Source of the DNA: Candidatus Sulfobium sp.
GTDB lineage: Bacteria > Nitrospirota > Thermodesulfovibrionia > Thermodesulfovibrionales > UBA6898
DNA length: 64,000 nucleotides
Reading direction: 5' to 3'
NCBI GenBank assembly: GCA_037380845.1
Contig: JARRRI010000013.1
Location: 10,315 to 74,314 of the forward strand
Shown piece after piece: positions 29,746-38,061 of the stretch. The position numbers were made by a program, and so were the translations under genes. The notes under the pieces are model-generated. The model saw only the letters and a program-made list of their open reading frames with translations. It was not told the DNA's origin and ran no database searches. Every line of letters starts with the position of its first letter. The first letter of the stretch is position 1.

Positions 29746-30003
29746 CTGGACCTCCGCCTTTCTTTCCGGACTGATCGCCGCCGTACCGCCTCATAATCAA
29801 AGAATAGTCTGTTAAGGGACGCTCTGCAAATATCCGGCCCCGGCAATATCTTAAAACGTTGCCGTTGTAACCTTTCTTTTAATCGCATAAACTTGAATTA
29901 GAAACCGGCAGAAAAAGTCCTGTCCACTGAAAGGACTGTTGGATTCCCGCAACGGAGATGCGCTTGTGTGCCGGCAGGCCGAGAGCCGAAAGGAGGCACC
30001 CCA

Positions 30004-32136
30004 TTGAAGACGCCCCTAAAGATAATAGTCATAATAGCTGTCGTCATACTGGTCGTAGTGGCAGGCCTCACGGTCTTCGTCAAGTCCTACCTGACTGACG
30101 CTCGCGTACGCACCCTGATCACCCGGACAGCCGAGTCCTCTCTCCACCGGAAGGTCTCCCTGGGTGCGATCTCGGTGAGCATCTTCAGAGGCATTTCGGT
30201 TAAGGATTTCGAGATCAAGGAGAAAGATTCTGATTCGGATTTCGTGAAAGCCGATGCCTTCGTGCTGAAATATCAGCTCCTGCCGCTCCTCTCACGGAGA
30301 CTGGTCATCAACCAGTTGGAAATTGAATCGCCCACGATTGTGATCAGGAAGAATTCCGACGGTTCCTACAATTTTTCGGATATGATAAGGCGGAAAGGGG
30401 AGGCCGCTGCAAAGAAGAAAGATACCGGCGGACTGTCGGGCCTTCCGGTCAGCCTGAGCGTACAGTCGCTCCGGATCGACAAGGCCCGGCTGGAATACTC
30501 CGATCCCGTCGGCACGGTAAAGAAGGCCCTGATCGGACTTGACGCCGGTATTGCGATCGAAGGAAGGTCCAGGCAGGTGATCGCTCCCTCCGGAAAGGCA
30601 AGGATGGAGGTCCTTGAGGTGGTGCTGAAAGACCGTCCCGGGCCGATCACTGATATCCCGGTGTCGCTGCAGTACAGCGCCGAGGTGGACCTCGCCGGAA
30701 AAAAAGTGTATATCCTTGACGCTTCGGTAAAGACACTTGGCGTGCCCGCCACGATCAAGGGTACGGTGAATTATGGCGAACCGCTTTCTTATGACCTGGA
30801 GGTGGGCGCGCCTTCGGTGGACCTCGCAGACGTGGAGAAGGGCGCGGCAGTTTTTCTGCCTTCCGGGATCAGGATCAGCGGCGGCTTCTCGATGAAGGTG
30901 TCTGCCGCGCAGAAAGCGGTGAAAGACGCGAAACCGGTCTTCAGCGGCGAGATAAAACTCGACAGGGTCGCGGTACAGGTGAAGAACATGAAACCTGTCT
31001 TCAGCGGAACGGTGACCCTCGCGCCGGAGCAGATCGGTTTCAGGTCAATGAAACTCGTAGCGGGGGACAGTTCGGCGGATATCAGCGGCCGGGTTGCCAA
31101 CTATTCGACCAATCCCGATATCCGCATGGATGTAACGAGCCCCATGCTTAATCTCGACAGCATCATGCTCCCCCAGGGAAAGGGAGAGGCAGATGCTCCT
31201 GGGGGACGACCGGGAAAAGAGGGGAAGGAGCAGAAGGAGTTCGGGCCCCTGAAGACAAAGATTACGGCCGGAGGAGATGTGGCGATCGCCAGGATGCTGT
31301 ATAAAGGCATTACTGTCCGGAACCTGAAGGCGCACTATACATTCCACAACAATATCTTTACCATTGACCCGCTAACGGGCGACACCCTCAGCGGCAGCTT
31401 CAGGGCGCGGAGCGCCGTGGACCTCTCGAAGAAGGGTATGGCTTATACCATGAATGCCGGGACGGACGGTGTCAAGCTCGAGGAGATCACCGCCGCTTTT
31501 GCACCGAAGGCGAAGGGCATTCTTTTCGGGAGTTTGTCGGCCCGCGCCGATATCAGCGGAGCGGGCTCAGCGAGCGAGACAATCAAACGCAATCTGAAGG
31601 GGAAAGGCTCGTTCAGCGTGAAAAACGGCGAGATAAAGAACGCGCCGATAGCTGACGGCCTCCTGGCGCTTCTGGGCCTCCGGAGCCTGAAGGAGATACC
31701 CATCGAGAAGGCTGCCGGCACCTTCAACATATCCGGCGGAGTGATAAACCTGACGAGCGTCATCGCCGGCAAAGACCTCGCCATTGACGAAACCGGGACC
31801 GTCGGGATGGACCAGAGACTCGACATGGGCATCCTGGTCAAGGTCTCTGACAAACTTTCACCAAAACTGCTGGGCCAGTCCGGAATCTCGCAGTTCCTGT
31901 CGGAAGAAAAGGGGTGGACCGAAATTCCCCTGAAACTGACCGGGACCGTCGCCAGGCCGTCCTATGGGGTCGATACAACGGCGATCGGCAAGAGAGCCAC
32001 GAAGAGCATCCAGAAGAAGGTAGAAGAGGAGATCTTCAAGGCGATCTCGGGAGAAAAGAAGAAGGAACAGCAGCCGACGGCCACACCGCAGAAGGGCAGT
32101 TCCCCGGAGGACCTGCTTAAGGGGTTTTTCAAGTAG
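30004..32136 (+). CDS. AsmA family protein
   Basis: N-terminal transmembrane anchor, G.YNFSD motif, beta-rich body; TTG start after GGAGG. Confidence 0.85.
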   Translation: MKTPLKIIVIIAVVILVVVAGLTVFVKSYLTDARVRTLITRTAESSLHRKVSLGAISVSIFRGISVKDFEIKEKDSDSDFVKADAFVLKYQLLPLLSRRLVINQLEIESPTIVIRKNSDGSYNFSDMIRRKGEAAAKKKDTGGLSGLPVSLSVQSLRIDKARLEYSDPVGTVKKALIGLDAGIAIEGRSRQVIAPSGKARMEVLEVVLKDRPGPITDIPVSLQYSAEVDLAGKKVYILDASVKTLGVPATIKGTVNYGEPLSYDLEVGAPSVDLADVEKGAAVFLPSGIRISGGFSMKVSAAQKAVKDAKPVFSGEIKLDRVAVQVKNMKPVFSGTVTLAPEQIGFRSMKLVAGDSSADISGRVANYSTNPDIRMDVTSPMLNLDSIMLPQGKGEADAPGGRPGKEGKEQKEFGPLKTKITAGGDVAIARMLYKGITVRNLKAHYTFHNNIFTIDPLTGDTLSGSFRARSAVDLSKKGMAYTMNAGTDGVKLEEITAAFAPKAKGILFGSLSARADISGAGSASETIKRNLKGKGSFSVKNGEIKNAPIADGLLALLGLRSLKEIPIEKAAGTFNISGGVINLTSVIAGKDLAIDETGTVGMDQRLDMGILVKVSDKLSPKLLGQSGISQFLSEEKGWTEIPLKLTGTVARPSYGVDTTAIGKRATKSIQKKVEEEIFKAISGEKKKEQQPTATPQKGSSPEDLLKGFFK

Positions 32137-32203
32137 CGGACCCCGGCCCGGTGAAGTCTGCCCTCTCCTCCCTTCCCTTCGAGGGAGGGGATAAGCTGGA
32201 AAG

Positions 32204-32259
32204 TTGACAGATGATATCTGGTACTGGTAGTATTATTCAAATATTCCAATATTTGAATA
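32204..32259 (+). promoter_or_regulatory. Sigma-70 promoter plus ArsR/SmtB-type 12-2-12 operator
   Basis: TTGACA (32204)-18 bp-TAGTAT (32228) preceded by TGn; perfect inverted repeat TATTCAAATATT-CC-AATATTTGAATA (32234-32259). Confidence 0.85.
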
Positions 32260-32274
32260 GGAGGTTTGGCTTCC

Positions 32275-32616
32275 ATGATTTCTCAAGCCGACAAGATAGA
32301 GGTCCTGAAGGTCATTGCCCACCCCTTAAGGATGCGGATACTCGAGGAACTCAGCAAAGGGGTGAAGTGCGTGAGCGACCTGGAAGAGTTTTTCGAAATC
32401 AGGCAGTCCAATATTTCACAACATCTTTCGCTGCTCAGGCGGCATGGTCTTATCGATTTTTACATTGACGGGAGACTCCGTTGTTATTTTCTGAGGGAGC
32501 CCTTCATCCCCGATCTGCTGGAATTGCTGAGGAAAGATTACGAGGAGGACCTGCCTGCCCCGGCCTGCTGTCCCGTAACCAGGAGGGGGAAGTATCCGGG
32601 TGACAGGAGGAATTGA
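32275..32616 (+). CDS. ArsR/SmtB family transcriptional regulator
   Basis: AHPLRMRIL, CVSDL, QSNISQHL helix-turn-helix; C-terminal CC. Confidence 0.93.
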   Translation: MISQADKIEVLKVIAHPLRMRILEELSKGVKCVSDLEEFFEIRQSNISQHLSLLRRHGLIDFYIDGRLRCYFLREPFIPDLLELLRKDYEEDLPAPACCPVTRRGKYPGDRRN

Positions 32617-32671
32617 TAAACCTGTATTTGACAATTCAGGGAGCCGCTGTTCTTCCCCGGGAGGAGGAGAA

Positions 32672-33016
32672 ATGAAGAAAGAAATAGCCTTGTTTTTCTC
32701 TACGACACCATATAGTTTCGAAAACACCCACACCATTATGAGGATCGCCGACGCAGCCCTCAAAAAAGGTCATAAAGTCAGGCTCATCGCGTCGGGAGAC
32801 GGGGTTTTTTCGGTCGTGAAAGGCCAGGTGCCCAAGTCTCTCGCCGCGCTGGAAGACCTTGTCGAAAGGGGTCTCAAGGTGGACATATGAACCGGCTGCA
32901 TGCAGGGTCGCGGTCTTGCGGCTGAAGACTCCATAGAGGGCGGGGAGATGAGTTCCCTGAAAGGTCTCCTGGACGTAATCGGGTCGAAACCGATATTTTT
33001 GAATTTCGGGATATAG
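32672..33016 (+). CDS. DsrE/TusD-family sulfur relay selenoprotein (Sec at TGA 32888-32890; UxxC)
   Basis: PYSFE, GDGV; the frame continues after TGA as U-TGCMQGRGL...FLNFGI to TAG 33014-33016, right before the next RBS; hairpin at 32902-32919. Confidence 0.85.
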
Positions 33017-33022
33017 GAGGAG

Positions 33023-33379
33023 ATGATGGGAGGCATCGGCATTGTCCTTAGAAGATCGCCTTACGGTTCTGTTGAGGCCGCTGAGGCCATAAGACATGCC
33101 CTCGGCGGGATAGGTGAAGGTTTTGACGTAAATCTCATGCTGATGGACGGAGGAGTCGAGGCCGCGCGAAAAAACCAGGACATCTCAGATACCGAATATC
33201 TGAGCGTTGAGGAAGGAATAAGAGACTGCCTGGATATGGGCGTAGCCGTATACGCGGAGAAAATTTCACTTGCAATGGCCGGTCTCTCTCCCGATAGCGC
33301 GGTGGAAGGAGTTGCGGCAGTAGATGAATCGGAGATAGCCGGGATGATTAAAGAGTCGGACACCACGATGATTTTCTAA
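33023..33379 (+). CDS. DsrE/DsrF (TusC-like) family protein
   Basis: RRSPYGS..AAEAIR, DGGV..A...Q, ends TMIF. Confidence 0.85.
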   Translation: MMGGIGIVLRRSPYGSVEAAEAIRHALGGIGEGFDVNLMLMDGGVEAARKNQDISDTEYLSVEEGIRDCLDMGVAVYAEKISLAMAGLSPDSAVEGVAAVDESEIAGMIKESDTTMIF

Positions 33380-33400
33380 TTTAACCAGTTGGGAGGATGT

Positions 33401-33688
33401 ATGGTAGTCCTTATAAAAAGTTCCCCGGACACTCCTGAAGGACAGAGAGGTGTCAGGATCGCGCGGGATATGTCGGCGGATATAGTTCTCCTGCAGAACG
33501 GAGTCTATTTTATTCAGGGGCAGAGGCTGGAAGACCTGGGAATCTATCGCGCGACATATGTGCTCGAGGATGACAGGAGATTGAGGGGACTGAAGCAGGC
33601 TGATGCCGACAAAAACATAAGAGACATCAGCTATGACGGCCTTGTCGACCTTATGGCGGAAAGCGACAAGGTAACAGGATTGTTTTAA
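33401..33688 (+). CDS. DsrH/TusB family protein
   Basis: LLQNGVY, YVLEDD..LRG, ISYDGLVDLM. Confidence 0.85.
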   Translation: MVVLIKSSPDTPEGQRGVRIARDMSADIVLLQNGVYFIQGQRLEDLGIYRATYVLEDDRRLRGLKQADADKNIRDISYDGLVDLMAESDKVTGLF

Positions 33689-33711
33689 GCAACTATGATG
33701 GGGAGGCTGAC

Positions 33712-34899
33712 ATGGCGAAAATACTTGTTTTGGGAGGCTCATTCGGCGGCCTTACCGCCGCGTTTGAACTGAAAAGACTTCTGGGAAAAAAGTCGGAAGT
33801 AACAGTAATGTCCGACGACGACAAATTCGTTTTCGTACCTTCGCTCCCCTGGCTTTCTCTGGGATGGAGAAAAGCCGGGGACATTACCCTGCCGGTAAAG
33901 TCCATTCTGGAGAAGAGGGGCATATCCTTTCTTCATGAAAAGGCAAAAGGTATAGAACCGGACTCATCCAAGGTAGTTACGGAAAAAGGAGAGACACCTT
34001 ACGACTACCTGGTCGTGGCGACCGGTCCCTACCTCGCGTTTGAAGAGGTACCGGGTCTGGGCCCGGAAAGAGGCCATACGGAATGCATCTTTACCCTTGA
34101 CCTGGCGGAGAAGGCGCATAAAGCCTGGGAGAGGTTTCTTGAAGAGCCCGGGCCCTTGGTCACAGGCTCTGTCCAGGGGGCCAGCTGCCTCGGGCCTCCC
34201 TATGAATACGCCTTTGAGGTAGACGGCGTCCTCCGGGAGCGGAAAATCAGGCACAAGGTTCCGATGGTATTCGTTACCTCAGAGCCCTATATCGGGCATT
34301 TCGGCATAGGGGGATTGAGAAATTCAAAGAGGTTGATGGAAGATGAATTCGCAAGGAGAGACATCAAGGTCGTCGCAAACGCGGTCATCGAGGAGTTTAC
34401 GCCGACGGAAGTGAAGCTGAAGGACGGCACGAATATCCCCTTCAAACTTGCCATGTTAGGCCCGGCGTTGAAAGGAGTGCCTGCCGTAGCCGACATCGGA
34501 AACCCGAGGGCCTTTATTCCGGTTGACGGCAAATATCGGCATGCGAAGTACAAAAACATCTTCAGCGTCGGCGTTGCCGTTGCGATGGCGCCTCCTGAAA
34601 AAACGCCCGTGCCGACCGGCGTTCCGAAGACCGGGCATATGACGGTGACGATGGCAAAATCCGCCTCACGGGTCGTCGCCTCCGACATAACGGGCGGTGA
34701 CGTACCTGAAGAAGAACCTTTGGGAGTCAAGTGTCTGATGGATATGGGCAACACAGCGGCGTACATGAGGGCAGATCCCGTTCTTCCGCCCAGGGAAGAG
34801 TCGGTCTTCGAGGAAGGCAGGCGTTTCCGGTGGGCGAAACTCGCATTCGAAAAATATTTCCTGTGGAAGATGAGAAACGGATTGAGTAACCTCCCCTAG
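33712..34899 (+). CDS. sqr: Sulfide:quinone oxidoreductase (FAD-dependent)
   Basis: GGSFGG FAD motif, FVPSLPW, SCLGPPYE, VPKTG, C..DMG, FEKYFL. Confidence 0.88.
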   Translation: MAKILVLGGSFGGLTAAFELKRLLGKKSEVTVMSDDDKFVFVPSLPWLSLGWRKAGDITLPVKSILEKRGISFLHEKAKGIEPDSSKVVTEKGETPYDYLVVATGPYLAFEEVPGLGPERGHTECIFTLDLAEKAHKAWERFLEEPGPLVTGSVQGASCLGPPYEYAFEVDGVLRERKIRHKVPMVFVTSEPYIGHFGIGGLRNSKRLMEDEFARRDIKVVANAVIEEFTPTEVKLKDGTNIPFKLAMLGPALKGVPAVADIGNPRAFIPVDGKYRHAKYKNIFSVGVAVAMAPPEKTPVPTGVPKTGHMTVTMAKSASRVVASDITGGDVPEEEPLGVKCLMDMGNTAAYMRADPVLPPREESVFEEGRRFRWAKLAFEKYFLWKMRNGLSNLP

Positions 34900-35011
34900 C
34901 CCGGCGCCGGATGTGGCATCCGGGATTAAAGTATGGTATCATGTCCTACCCGGCAGACCGGGGCATTCTTTGTTTATTTCAAGGCCCTGAAGGGGCCCGG
35001 AGGTGGGGCTT

Positions 35012-35443
35012 ATGAAGGTAAAGGAGTTGCTGGGGACCAAGGGGAAAGACGTGGTCTCCATCGATGATCACTACACGGTAGAGGACGCCATCACGTCGAT
35101 GAACGCCAGGAAGATCAGTGCGCTTATGGTAAACGACAAGGGCAAGGCAGTCGGCATCTTCACGGAAAGGGACGTGGTAAGGTCTTACATGGTCAACGCG
35201 GGTAAGAGCTTCAAGGAAATCTCTATAAAGGACGCGATGACGACTGACTTGATGGTTGCCGAAATGGAAGATGACATCAGCGACGTTATGGCGATCATGG
35301 TCGAAAAGAATATCAGGCATCTCCCGGTGATCGAGGACGGACAGGTTATCGGCATGCTTTCCATAAGGGACATCGTGCAGACCCACGTGGGAAAACTTAC
35401 ATCAGAGATTCATTATCTCAAGGACTACATTACGGGATACTGA
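35012..35443 (+). CDS. CBS domain protein
   Basis: GIFTERD, IRHLPV, GMLSIRDIV. Confidence 0.92.
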   Translation: MKVKELLGTKGKDVVSIDDHYTVEDAITSMNARKISALMVNDKGKAVGIFTERDVVRSYMVNAGKSFKEISIKDAMTTDLMVAEMEDDISDVMAIMVEKNIRHLPVIEDGQVIGMLSIRDIVQTHVGKLTSEIHYLKDYITGY

Positions 35444-35819: not shown

Positions 35820-36293
35820 ATGCTTATGAATGATAAACTCGACGAAATTATAGGAAGATACAGGGAAAAAAAGGGGAATATAATATTCCTCCTGCAGGAA
35901 ACCCAGGCCGCCTTCGGTTTTATACCGAGGGAAGCAGTCAATTTCTTCTCCGAAGAACTCGGCATCGCCCCCAGCCGCTTTTTCGGCATCGCCACGTTTT
36001 ACTCCCAGTTCCGGCTCCACCCCGCCGGGAAAAACAGGATAACCGCCTGCTGCGGGACGGCCTGTCACGTCAAGGGCTCCGAGAAGATAATCAGAAGTCT
36101 GAGGCGTGAGCTCCAGCTGCCCGAGGGGAACGACACAACAGCCGACGGGGAGTTCACACTTGAAGAGGTGGCCTGTCTCGGCACGTGCAGTTTCGCACCG
36201 GTCGTCCTTGTAAACGGAGACGTCCGCGGCAGGGCCAGTGCACAGAAAGTCACGAGGGAGATAGGTTCACTGAGGAAGAAGAATGAGGGATAA
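35820..36293 (+). CDS. NuoE-like [2Fe-2S] subunit of NAD-linked formate dehydrogenase
   Basis: ATFYSQF, CCGTACHVKG, CLGTC. Confidence 0.92.
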   Translation: MLMNDKLDEIIGRYREKKGNIIFLLQETQAAFGFIPREAVNFFSEELGIAPSRFFGIATFYSQFRLHPAGKNRITACCGTACHVKGSEKIIRSLRRELQLPEGNDTTADGEFTLEEVACLGTCSFAPVVLVNGDVRGRASAQKVTREIGSLRKKNEG

Positions 36294-38061
36294 GACGGTG
36301 ATAAGGGTCTGCATGGGCCCGGCGGGCATAGCGGCAGGCGGCAAGGCCGTCCTCGAGGCGTTCAGGAGAGCCTTGTCGGAGGCTTCCGCAGAGGCAGACG
36401 TTGTGGAGAACTGTTCCTCGCACCAGGTGGGTTGCCTGGGACTCTGCGCACGGGACGTGCTGGTTGAGGTCCTGATGAACGGCGTGAAAACAGTCTATCA
36501 GTATGTGAAGCCCAATATTGTGGAGAGGATAGTGAAGGAGCACATCGTCGGGGGTATGCCCGTAGAGGAATGGAAAATCGACGACGCCTATGATTCCTTT
36601 TACGGAAAGCAGGTCAAGGTGGTGCTTCAAGACTGCGGCAGGGTCGATCCGGAGGATATCGAGTCGTACATCGGCATCGGCGGGTATGAGGCGGTCCGCA
36701 GGGTACTTTACGCCTGGACGCCGGACGACGTGATCGGGGAGATAAAGTCTTCGGGCCTGAGGGGCCGCGGCGGCGCCGGATTTCCAACGGGTCTTAAGTG
36801 GGAACTCGGGAGGAGAAGCAGCGGCGATGTCAAGTACATCATCTGCAATGCCGATGAAGGTGACCCCGGCGCCTTCATGGACAGGGCGGTCATAGAAGGG
36901 AACCCCCATTCGGTAATAGAGGGCATGATCATCGGCGCCTACGCCGTAGGGGCCCATAAGGGATACGTCTACATCAGGGCCGAATATCCTCTGGCCGTAG
37001 AGAGGCTGCAGCTCGCGCTGGAGCAGGCGTCCCGGAAAGGCTTTCTGGGAAGCAGCGTCTTCGGCAGCTATTTCGATTTCGACATCGAGATCAAGCTGGG
37101 GGCGGGTGCCTTCGTATGCGGGGAAGAGACGGCTCTCATCGCGTCGATAGAAGGACAGAGAGGCATGCCGAGGTCGAAGCCGCCATTCCCGGTCAACAAG
37201 GGATTATGGCAGAGGCCTACAGTAATCAACAACGTCGAGACCCTGGCAAACATAGCGTCCATCATCAGCCACGGGGCCGGCTGGTACTCCTCTTACGGAA
37301 CGGAGCGCTCCCGGGGGACGAAGGTCTTCGCCCTCACCGGGAAGATAAAGAATACGGGCCTCATAGAGGTCCCGATGGGCATTAGCATGAGGGAGATAAT
37401 CTACGATATAGGCGGAGGCATCGACGGAGACGGGGCGTTGAAGGCGGTGCAGACCGGCGGCCCCTCGGGAGGATGCATACCGGCCGGCATGGCCGACCTC
37501 AGTGTCGACTACGAGTCTCTCTCCAGGGCCGGTTCCATCGTGGGTTCGGGGGGGATGATCGTGCTCGACGAAAACGATTGCATGGTCAACATGGCAAAGT
37601 ATTTCGTACAGTTCACACAGGCCGAATCGTGCGGAAAGTGTGTACCCTGCCGGGTGGGGACGAAGAGGCTGCTTGAGATCCTGGACCGCATCACAAAAGG
37701 GCAGGGGAGGGAGGGCGATATCGAGCGCCTGGAGAGGCTGAGCAGGGGGGTGAAGGTCACTTCGCTCTGCGGGCTCGGCCAGACCGCGCCGAACCCGGTC
37801 CTCAGCAACCTCCGGTATTTCAGGGATGAATTCGAGGCGCATATCAGGGACAGGAAGTGCCCTGCAGGGGTATGCAGGGAACTCCTCACCTATCGCATCG
37901 TGGAAGAATCCTGCACCGGATGCGGCGCATGCCTGAGGGCCTGCCCCGCGGGCGCCATCAGCGGTGAAAAGAAGAAGCCGCACGTCATAGACCCCGACAT
38001 ATGCATCAGGTGCGGGGCCTGTTTCGACGTGTGCAAATTTAAGTCGGTGGAGAAAGATTAG
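36283..38061 (+). CDS. NuoF/HydB-like NAD(H)/FMN-binding subunit
   Basis: GRGGAGFPTG, NADEGDPGAFMDR, CGEETAL, CGKCVPCRVG, C-terminal 2x[4Fe-4S]. Confidence 0.95.
   Translation: MRDKTVIRVCMGPAGIAAGGKAVLEAFRRALSEASAEADVVENCSSHQVGCLGLCARDVLVEVLMNGVKTVYQYVKPNIVERIVKEHIVGGMPVEEWKIDDAYDSFYGKQVKVVLQDCGRVDPEDIESYIGIGGYEAVRRVLYAWTPDDVIGEIKSSGLRGRGGAGFPTGLKWELGRRSSGDVKYIICNADEGDPGAFMDRAVIEGNPHSVIEGMIIGAYAVGAHKGYVYIRAEYPLAVERLQLALEQASRKGFLGSSVFGSYFDFDIEIKLGAGAFVCGEETALIASIEGQRGMPRSKPPFPVNKGLWQRPTVINNVETLANIASIISHGAGWYSSYGTERSRGTKVFALTGKIKNTGLIEVPMGISMREIIYDIGGGIDGDGALKAVQTGGPSGGCIPAGMADLSVDYESLSRAGSIVGSGGMIVLDENDCMVNMAKYFVQFTQAESCGKCVPCRVGTKRLLEILDRITKGQGREGDIERLERLSRGVKVTSLCGLGQTAPNPVLSNLRYFRDEFEAHIRDRKCPAGVCRELLTYRIVEESCTGCGACLRACPAGAISGEKKKPHVIDPDICIRCGACFDVCKFKSVEKD

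Follow-up and report, generated by a model that had tools for sequence, protein, structure and literature searches.

The five-gene locus and its control region

A stretch of 64,000 nt from contig JARRRI010000013.1 of a Candidatus Sulfobium sp. assembly (GCA_037380845.1), here called the window, was analyzed for a cluster of five genes at positions 32204-34899. The genes lie on the + strand in the order arsR-dsrE-dsrF-dsrH-sqr and encode a putative ArsR-family repressor, three small subunits related to DsrE, DsrF and DsrH, and a sulfide:quinone reductase (SQR) homologue. The dsrE gene contains an in-frame TGA codon, which very probably encodes selenocysteine (Sec). The host is a DsrAB-bearing member of the Nitrospirota (Thermodesulfovibrionales, near Candidatus Sulfobium) with a genome of 3.18 Mb. 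A sequence-only reading of the same DNA had listed a promoter, a palindrome, a Cys-bearing ArsR, three DsrEFH/TusDCB-like genes and an SQR. Each of these elements was found where it had been placed, and the observation of an arsR-dsrE(Sec)-dsrF-dsrH-sqr operon is confirmed as real. The intergenic gaps are 55, 6, 21 and 23 nt and a purine-rich ribosome-binding site precedes every start codon, an arrangement from which co-transcription of the five genes as one operon is inferred.

The dsrE gene (32672..33016, + strand) is predicted to encode a DsrE-like selenoprotein of 114 amino acids (aa). The model predicted for this protein, built on 29 sequences, had a confidence score (pLDDT) of 92.3, and residue 73 closes the strand formed by residues 69-73 and precedes the helix 74-79. 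The best match of the model in the PDB (Foldseek) was A. vinosum DsrE, 2hy5_A, with a TM score of 0.86, a root-mean-square deviation of 1.9 and 22% identity. DsrF, YchN and TusD were the next matches, and TusD and TusC of 2d1p also matched. From the alignment, Sec73 would stand at the position of Cys78 in A. vinosum DsrE. The HMMER sequence match between the two proteins was weak (E 0.1). Designed PPR repeat proteins led the PDB sequence search with DsrE and were dismissed as an artefact of one short repeated stretch. DsrF/TusC-like and DsrH/TusB-like subunits of 118 and 95 aa are encoded by dsrF (33023..33379, + strand; PF02635, 46.5 bits) and dsrH (33401..33688, + strand; PF04077, 37.7 bits). 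The active-site position of DsrF is without Cys.

The last gene, sqr (33712..34899, + strand), encodes a type I SQR homologue of 395 aa, with E-values of 2.1e-97 to 3t2y and 1.3e-96 to 3hyv. Cys125, Cys159 and Cys341 align with Cys128, Cys160 and Cys356 of the A. ferrooxidans enzyme (3t2y). All of 22 related sequences have Cys159 and Cys341, and at least 90% of them have Cys125. The short C-terminus ending in GLSNLP is kept in all 22 relatives. By tblastn this is the sole full-length SQR in the genome.

The first gene, arsR (32275..32616, + strand), encodes an ArsR/SmtB-family repressor of 113 aa (PF01022, 46.5 bits, E 3.3e-12). A sigma-70-type promoter is predicted upstream of it at 32204..32233 (+ strand), with TTGACA at 32204-32209, an 18-nt spacer, TAGTAT at 32228-32233 and a TG before the -10 hexamer (10/12 matches). 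By itself this match is weak, since such sites are not rare compared with shuffled sequence (6 in the region versus 2.4 +/- 1.6 in shuffles) and the stretch is AT-rich. TTGACA was also found upstream of arsR in relatives. Directly after the -10 hexamer, and before the ribosome-binding site, lies a perfect 12-2-12 palindrome, TATTCAAATATT-CC-AATATTTGAATA (32234..32259), the presumed ArsR operator. Its arms, 32234-32245 and 32248-32259, are 100% complementary. When up to three mismatches were allowed, the 22-nt core of the palindrome occurred once in the window and none of 100 shuffles gave any match. The core has a single occurrence in the whole genome, at the arsR of the window. A terminator-like GC hairpin at 34949..34962 (+ strand), 50 nt past the sqr stop codon, is the probable operon end. 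It is weak evidence alone, since the terminator scan was at chance level (5 sites versus 4.1 expected), and also marked weak sites within arsR and close to the dsrE terminus. At Rfam gathering scores no family was found in the operon, and the only matches in the window were two tRNAs elsewhere.

Several further features were observed around the operon. An AsmA/DUF748-family envelope protein gene (29968-32136) ends 68 nt upstream of the promoter, and a 10-nt inverted repeat, TCTCCTCCCT / AGGGAGGGGA, at 32164-32191 between the two may terminate that gene. Between arsR and dsrE, at 32610-32637, there is an imperfect inverted repeat (82%), GAATTGATAAA / TTTGACAATTC, which contains TTGACA, is unlike the operator and has no obvious -10. 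Downstream of the operon are a tandem-CBS protein gene (35003-35443, PF00571) and two reading frames of 157 and 592 aa (35820-38061), which have a NuoE/NuoF-type look, judged by sequence appearance only.

The probable selenocysteine codon of dsrE

With translation table 11, dsrE stops after 72 codons. Read-through of the TGA at 32888..32890 (+ strand, codon 73) as Sec gives the 114-aa protein with the motif U73-T-G-C76, which scores 56.8 bits on PF02635 (gathering threshold 22.7). Of 401 scanned genomes from the phylum, 236 had a match. The operon is carried, among others, by two single-contig genomes, G013 and G344. All 52 matches listed at 66% identity or more carry exactly one in-frame TGA, as do most matches in a second group with 41-50% identity. 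In each of 30 loci TGA is codon 73 and the frame is open to exactly 114 codons. The 41 codons past TGA are open and conserved in all 30 loci, and also in the second clade. Column 73 of the alignment is occupied by Sec (24 sequences) or Cys (5) in 29/29 sequences. Cys, in a CGTC motif, takes the place of Sec in four genomes of another family (loci L059-L062), and two more distant relatives have Cys at column 73 and lack the second Cys.

A hairpin resembling a selenocysteine insertion sequence (SECIS) is predicted at 32906..32923 (+ strand). It begins 18 nt after the U of UGA and consists of a 6-bp stem with the apical loop GGUCUU. Among 27 distinct sequences, 90.7% of the cells in the stem are paired and 10 cells are changed on both sides; the pair 20-35 is seen as G-C, C-G and U-A. 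Neither the observed pairing nor the covariation was matched in any of 500 shuffles, and pairing fell to 28-50% when the partner columns were slid. At the corresponding site the second, paralogous clade has a different stem of 8 bp, in which 90.2% of the cells are paired and C-G pairs are exchanged for U-A. The folding energy of the region is not distinctive, and it is on this covariation that the prediction of the hairpin is based.

Sec machinery is encoded in the host genome, as selB (331.6 bits), tRNA-Sec (73 bits), selA (620.3 bits) and selD, which has a TGA of its own. The strong tRNA-Sec is located on contig C31. A weaker tRNA-Sec-like match, 47.3 bits and just above the gathering score, lies at C62:31154-31243, directly upstream of a yedF-type TusA-DsrE gene (C62:31272-31874). 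Taken together, the conserved TGA, the Cys in relatives, the covarying hairpin and the Sec machinery bear out the selenocysteine DsrE of the sequence-only reading.

Conservation of the gene order and the ArsR subfamily

Gene order was compared in 29 loci besides that of the window, found with DsrE as anchor; the counts come from related organisms and do not represent independent events. Of the 29 loci, 25 have an arsR in the same orientation upstream of dsrE. dsrF comes next in all 29, and dsrH follows in 27, the other two being cut by contig ends. SQR is present in 19 of 26 assessable loci. The second clade, with UGGC in place of the UTGC motif, has the same arsR-dsrE-F-H-sqr order. In the four loci with a Cys-type dsrE (family f22), dsrE-dsrF-dsrH are followed by the gene for an SQR-like flavoprotein 25% identical to that of the window, and no arsR relative was found beside the trio in these loci. 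Because an SQR-like gene also follows the Cys-type dsrEFH, the DsrEFH-SQR link is older than the Sec form.

A second search, anchored on ArsR, covered 185,579 species genomes and gave 195 relatives, of which the loci of the best 80 were analyzed. Almost all of these are from Nitrospirota (Thermodesulfovibrionales, Candidatus Sulfobium, Dissulfurispiraceae); two records are labelled Desulfurivibrionaceae/Desulfurivibrio and one Bacteroidales. The closest relatives, 91-92% identical, are from Candidatus Sulfobium and Thermodesulfovibrionales assemblies. Of 78 assessable loci, 47 have a dsrE with TGA downstream of arsR, and 37 of these 47 also have SQR. One of the 47 (L183) looks broken past the TGA. 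From both anchors, the arsR-dsrEFH-sqr order is thus conserved in Nitrospirota, with sqr as the usual last member. A 140-aa gene with a DrsE_2 domain (PF13686) is often present in loci L124, L125, L145, L148, L156, L160, L171, L175, L181 and L192, and also in the group-2 loci L063-L065, L069-L072, L074 and L078. In most such loci it comes after sqr, where the window has the CBS-domain gene.

ArsR has four cysteines, Cys32 (GVKCVSD), Cys70 (RLRCYF) and the pair Cys99-Cys100 in the conserved tail PAPACCPVT(K/R)(K/R)G. All four are invariant in 25/25 orthologues, and the CC pair is present in 80/80 of the best ArsR loci. The tail motif of the subfamily is PAPACCPVTKKG. A related operator was found upstream of arsR by a mismatch-tolerant scan in 41/47 dsrEFH-type loci, with mononucleotide shuffles as the sole control, a weak one for AT-rich DNA. 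The consensus for the subfamily is (T/C)AT(T/G)CAAATATT-NN-(A/T)ATATTTG(A/C)ATA. Counted from the first base of TTGACA, the operator mostly begins at a distance of 9-10 nt in the relatives, and at +29, past the -10, in the clade of the window. A strict palindrome search across the loci of the relatives found the perfect repeat in the window's own locus only.

The same ArsR subfamily and operator also head other operons. Thirty-one assessable loci among the best 80 are without dsrE(U), and in 14 of these selD is present, often together with tauE and a TusA-DsrE (YedF-type) gene; the operator was detected by the same scan in 11 of the 14. Examples among L115-L194 are L135:4936-6688 and L155:4932-7494, and the selD frames begin just past their own TGA. 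In 11 of the best 80 loci arsR is found with a single DsrE-like gene and genes for a small thioredoxin-like protein, a rhodanese and a DedA/VTT protein, and other loci have a TehA/SLAC1-type channel or a VTT protein downstream. Mixed clusters were found as dsrEFH-sqr-arsR-selD-tauE (L135), tauE-sqr-selD-tauE (L167, L194), tauE-selD-tauE-sqr (L190) and tauE-dsrEFH-sqr (L145, L156), and selD is near dsrEFH in L069 and L078. In a quickly built ArsR tree (113 columns, 43 of 78 forks unresolved), the ArsRs linked to selD are scattered among the dsrEFH-linked ones (12 changes for 14 rows), and those linked to a single dsrE and rhodanese form one supported clade. In the genome of the window selD (contig C20) and yedF (contig C62) are unlinked to the operon and without such an operator.

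The remaining sulfur genes of the host are located on other contigs. DsrAB and a canonical two-cysteine DsrC, ending ...CRYAGLPKPTGCV, are encoded on contig C51, and the genome has a second DsrC/TusE-family gene (the family is on contigs C51 and C2). No dsrAB, dsrC, tusE or mnmA was found in the window; for the first three this agrees with the sequence-only reading. Eight TusA-family matches were found in the genome, none of them on the contig of the window. The same reading had called the module self-contained, which is doubtful because the DsrAB, DsrC and TusA genes are elsewhere and some relatives lack the SQR. In 63 genomes of the same order dsrA was found in 59, comprising 30/30 with Sec-dsrE and 29/33 without it. 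Clear DsrD matches (77-81 bits) were seen only in family f11, in five of six genomes, all picked as being without Sec-dsrE; weak matches (21-24 bits) occurred in seven genomes with Sec-dsrE and one without. This distribution is suggestive at best, as the genomes are kin and not independent. No DsrD match was found in the genome of the window, a result which is uninformative as control genomes were equally silent.

Two further dsrE-type clusters were found in the host. A second, decaying copy of the operon is located on the - strand of contig C10 (35511-37060), so that two Sec-dsrE clades coexist in one genome. This copy has an intact Sec-dsrE of the UGGC clade, dsrF and dsrH, and retains the first 22 codons of sqr only (91% identical). 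Residues 1-109 and 82-113 of its ArsR are encoded in different frames, which points to a frameshift or an assembly error. An RND/MMPL-type transporter gene split in two frames comes next, and then two further genes. The other cluster (C96:5546-6959) encodes a DsrH-like protein, a DsrE-like protein with a CEAC motif, 31% identical to the DsrE of the window, a DsrF-like protein and then TusA (CPYP) at the contig end.

Proposed function, alternatives and relation to known systems

The part identities, the Sec codon and its hairpin, the conserved order and the conserved operator, unique in the genome and located at the promoter, are observed features. The explanation to which we lean, with moderate confidence, is that the five-gene operon handles sulfane sulfur derived from sulfide in DsrAB-bearing Nitrospirota and responds to sulfide. 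ArsR would repress its own operon by binding, as a dimer, to the palindrome that separates the -10 from the ribosome-binding site. Release would follow modification of Cys32, Cys70 and Cys99-Cys100 by reactive sulfur species, or possibly selenium species. SQR would oxidise sulfide to polysulfide or persulfide. Compared with thiols, selenols are stronger nucleophiles and better leaving groups at neutral pH. Located at the N-terminal end of a helix, Sec73 could attack the sulfane sulfur with its selenolate and hold it as an Se-S adduct, with Cys76 of the UxxC motif available for resolving this adduct. The DsrEFH-like trimer may then pass the sulfur to a cytoplasmic acceptor, most plausibly DsrC or TusA, and DsrC would feed DsrAB in the oxidative or disproportionating direction. 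Transfer to DsrC, taken as a step alone, is somewhat doubtful.

A number of observations weigh against this explanation. The SQR alignment stops at residue 407 of 434, so that the last approximately 27 residues of the solved enzymes are without counterpart, and SQR is missing in 7 of the 26 assessable relatives, where unrelated genes follow. In some bacteria type I SQRs face the periplasm, which would part SQR from a cytoplasmic relay. DsrH is without any cysteine. All three subunits miss the NCBIfam equivalog cut-offs (TIGR03012, 16.4 versus 89.25 bits; TIGR03010, 28.8 versus 94.15; TIGR03011, 41.9 versus 49.2), and by these scores the trio are relatives of TusD/DsrE, TusC/DsrF and TusB/DsrH, not equivalogs. 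The folding energy after the UGA is ordinary (z 0.08; 101 of 200 shuffles fold as well). The co-occurrence with dsrA says little, because dsrA is nearly as frequent in the genomes without Sec-dsrE. The ArsR cysteines are off the alignable SqrR Cys position, and the ArsR subfamily also heads selD operons, which would fit a role in selenium handling as well.

The sequence-only reading had pointed to persulfide sensing by some ArsR proteins (SqrR, BigR); a likeness of the window's ArsR to these was not supported. In the HMMER alignment with the SqrR chain, the helix-2 Cys of SqrR ('lmimCyl') faces a Glu in 'rileel' of the query and the query Cys32 faces a Ser; the alignment ends before the C-terminal cysteines of the query and therefore compares one SqrR cysteine. 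The score on the BigR equivalog model was 40.5 bits against a cut-off of 155. Judged from these comparisons, ArsR is a sensor design different from SqrR and BigR. Since the SqrR Cys is not aligned and the BigR score is far below the cut-off, persulfide sensing by ArsR can only be inferred.

An alternative, which we consider unlikely, is that the module handles selenium instead of, or besides, sulfur. SQR would oxidise selenide or make mixed Se/S chains, Sec73 would take selenium selectively as an Se-Se adduct in an excess of sulfide, ArsR would be selenium-responsive and the relay would supply or buffer selenium for SelD. In a wider form of this alternative, one repressor type would also switch on selD-tauE-yedF, and the operon would be part of a chalcogen-trafficking regulon under the ArsR subfamily with its four invariant cysteines, conserved tail and shared operator; this too has a low probability. 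The CC tail in all 80 loci, the 14 selD(-tauE-yedF) operons and the operator at 11 of them, the mixed clusters and the interspersed selD-linked ArsRs of the quick tree all speak for such a role. In the literature, YedF, a TusA and DsrE-like protein with CGxC, is tied to SelD (PMC5322559), and human SQOR is described as moving electrons from selenide to ubiquinone (preprint 10.1101/2023.04.13.535674). However, selD and yedF are unlinked to the operon in this genome, where the operator is found solely at this arsR, and within 4.5 kb of the 47 dsrEFH-type loci selD is present in none and tauE or yedF in five. Furthermore, the SQR retains the three catalytic cysteines of sulfide-oxidising enzymes, Cys-type DsrEFH-SQR clusters exist too, and co-regulation of selD with a selenoprotein gene could just secure the supply of Sec.

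It is less probable still that the operon serves plain sulfide detoxification under a metal(loid)-type ArsR, which would sense As(III), Sb(III) or a soft metal by its vicinal cysteines, the operon meeting metal-sulfide or thio-arsenic stress with no link to energy metabolism. The only regulator model passed by ArsR is NF033788 'metalloregulator ArsR/SmtB' (72.1 bits, cut-off 55). Classical ArsR proteins bind As(III) through a helix in which Cys32 would be located, and another ArsR type uses a C-terminal vicinal Cys pair. SQR detoxification operons under thiol-based repressors are well known, as in the cst operon and those of SqrR and BigR. However, no arsenic, metal-efflux or metallochaperone gene is in or beside the operon, and the neighbours of ArsR in the best 80 loci are all sulfur or selenium genes (DsrE-like, rhodanese, SQR, SelD, TauE, TusA-DsrE).

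A relay of the TusBCD type for tRNA 2-thiouridine, merely adjoining sqr, is highly improbable: the fold also matches TusD and TusC of 2d1p and the tusC, tusD and tusB models are matched weakly, but all three subunits score far below the equivalog cut-offs (16-42 versus 49-94 bits), the trio accompanies SQR and a thiol-rich repressor in three clades, the hosts carry DsrAB, and tusE and mnmA are missing from the window. The weakest alternative, that translation really ends at the TGA, which would make dsrE a remnant of 72 codons followed by a non-coding frame, can practically be dismissed: nearly all of the 120 relatives among the matches listed have 72 aa in public gene calls, no Rfam family matches the region and the hairpin has an ordinary folding energy, but the codons past the TGA are open and conserved in 30/30 loci and in the second clade, relatives carry Cys instead of a stop, the hairpin has compensatory pairs, the read-through protein models as a complete DsrE (pLDDT 92) and the genome encodes Sec machinery.

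With sulfane sulfur handling as the preferred explanation, the operon can be compared with known systems. The cst operon of Staphylococcus aureus consists of cstA, which has a DsrE-like domain, cstB and sqr, under control of CstR. As in this operon and in those of SqrR and BigR, a thiol-based repressor heads an SQR and sulfurtransferase operon, and with the SqrR/BigR type the window shares an ArsR-fold repressor and a 12-2-12-type operator. In contrast, the cysteines of the window's ArsR are placed elsewhere than the alignable helix-2 cysteine of SqrR, there is no persulfide dioxygenase and the sulfurtransferase is a Sec-bearing DsrEFH trio. The SQR resembles the type I enzymes of Acidithiobacillus ferrooxidans (3t2y) and Aquifex aeolicus (3hyv) over its full length (E about 1e-97) and in its three cysteines, but is shorter (395 aa versus 434 and 430), part of their membrane-binding C-terminus being missing.

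DsrE-like UxxC selenoproteins (PF02635) have been in print since 2005 (Zhang, Fomenko, Gladyshev 2005; Zhang et al. 2006; PMC1088965, PMC1794560, PMC13188914), and a 2026 review counts them among selenoproteins of largely unknown function (PMC13188914). Like these proteins, the DsrE of the window is a member of PF02635 in which Sec is the first residue of UxxC, and a hairpin of the bacterial SECIS type lies past the UGA. In the accessible parts of these papers they are listed as single proteins of unknown function, e.g. in Desulfovibrio vulgaris, whereas the window has the E subunit of an E-F-H trio in an operon. The sequence-only reading had suggested an undescribed system. This stands for the operon, and does not for the selenoprotein family. 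In literature searches, which among the supplements of the survey papers covered that of PMC13293266, no account of an arsR-dsrE(Sec)FH-sqr operon was found.

The trio shares with DsrEFH type I of A. vinosum (2hy5) and TusBCD of E. coli (2d1p) three paralogous small subunits in the order E-F-H. Compared with 2hy5, DsrE has Sec for Cys78 and an extra Cys at +3, DsrH is without Cys, and the subunits are shorter (114, 118 and 95 versus 130, 132 and 101 aa). Unlike type I, the genes are beside sqr and outside any dsr cluster, in organisms described as having reductive-type dsrAB (PMC11033732). A. vinosum DsrEFH donates sulfur to DsrC, and type II, described by Plum-Jensen et al. 2026 in cable bacteria and sulfate reducers, is reported to do likewise in vitro (PMC13293266). 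Type II is a DsrEFH-like trimer found with reductive-type DsrAB, Nitrospirota included, and a route from SQR via polysulfide and a relay to DsrC has been proposed for it; it has an active-site Cys67, adjoins yeeE/yedE and tusA, and annotation tools fail to detect it (PMC13293266). By comparison of synteny and residues, the trio of the window differs in being recognised by Pfam, in having Sec instead of Cys67 and in adjoining arsR and sqr. The C96 cluster with its TusA fits type II better than the trio of the window does, and may be the YeeE/TusA-linked DsrEFH type II of PMC13293266. Neither selenocysteine nor ArsR is mentioned in the accessible part of that paper. New in the present study are the finding that the same ArsR subfamily and operator head selD-tauE-yedF operons elsewhere, the two Sec clades in one genome, the operator census and the regulon as seen with ArsR as anchor.

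In uncultured DsrAB organisms, dsrEFH serves as a marker for sulfur oxidation versus reduction (PMC6018805). According to a 2024 survey, most Thermodesulfovibrionia with reductive-type dsrAB 'possess dsrFH, but no dsrE' (PMC11033732). This gap is explained by the Sec codon at position 73, where gene callers cut dsrE to a 72-residue stub so that the gene looks absent from these bacteria. A large group of supposed sulfate reducers would thus own a complete, selenium-dependent relay tied to SQR. This is relevant to a proposal made in 2026, according to which sulfur oxidation is also open to many sulfate reducers (PMC13293266). The operon family furthermore offers a natural Sec/Cys pair for asking why a sulfur relay would use selenium. 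Its ArsR is a new type of sensor for which an operator is defined, and sulfide oxidation may be linked to selenium activation. If the selenium role were true, the operon would represent a dedicated route of selenium acquisition made from parts of the sulfur-oxidation machinery.

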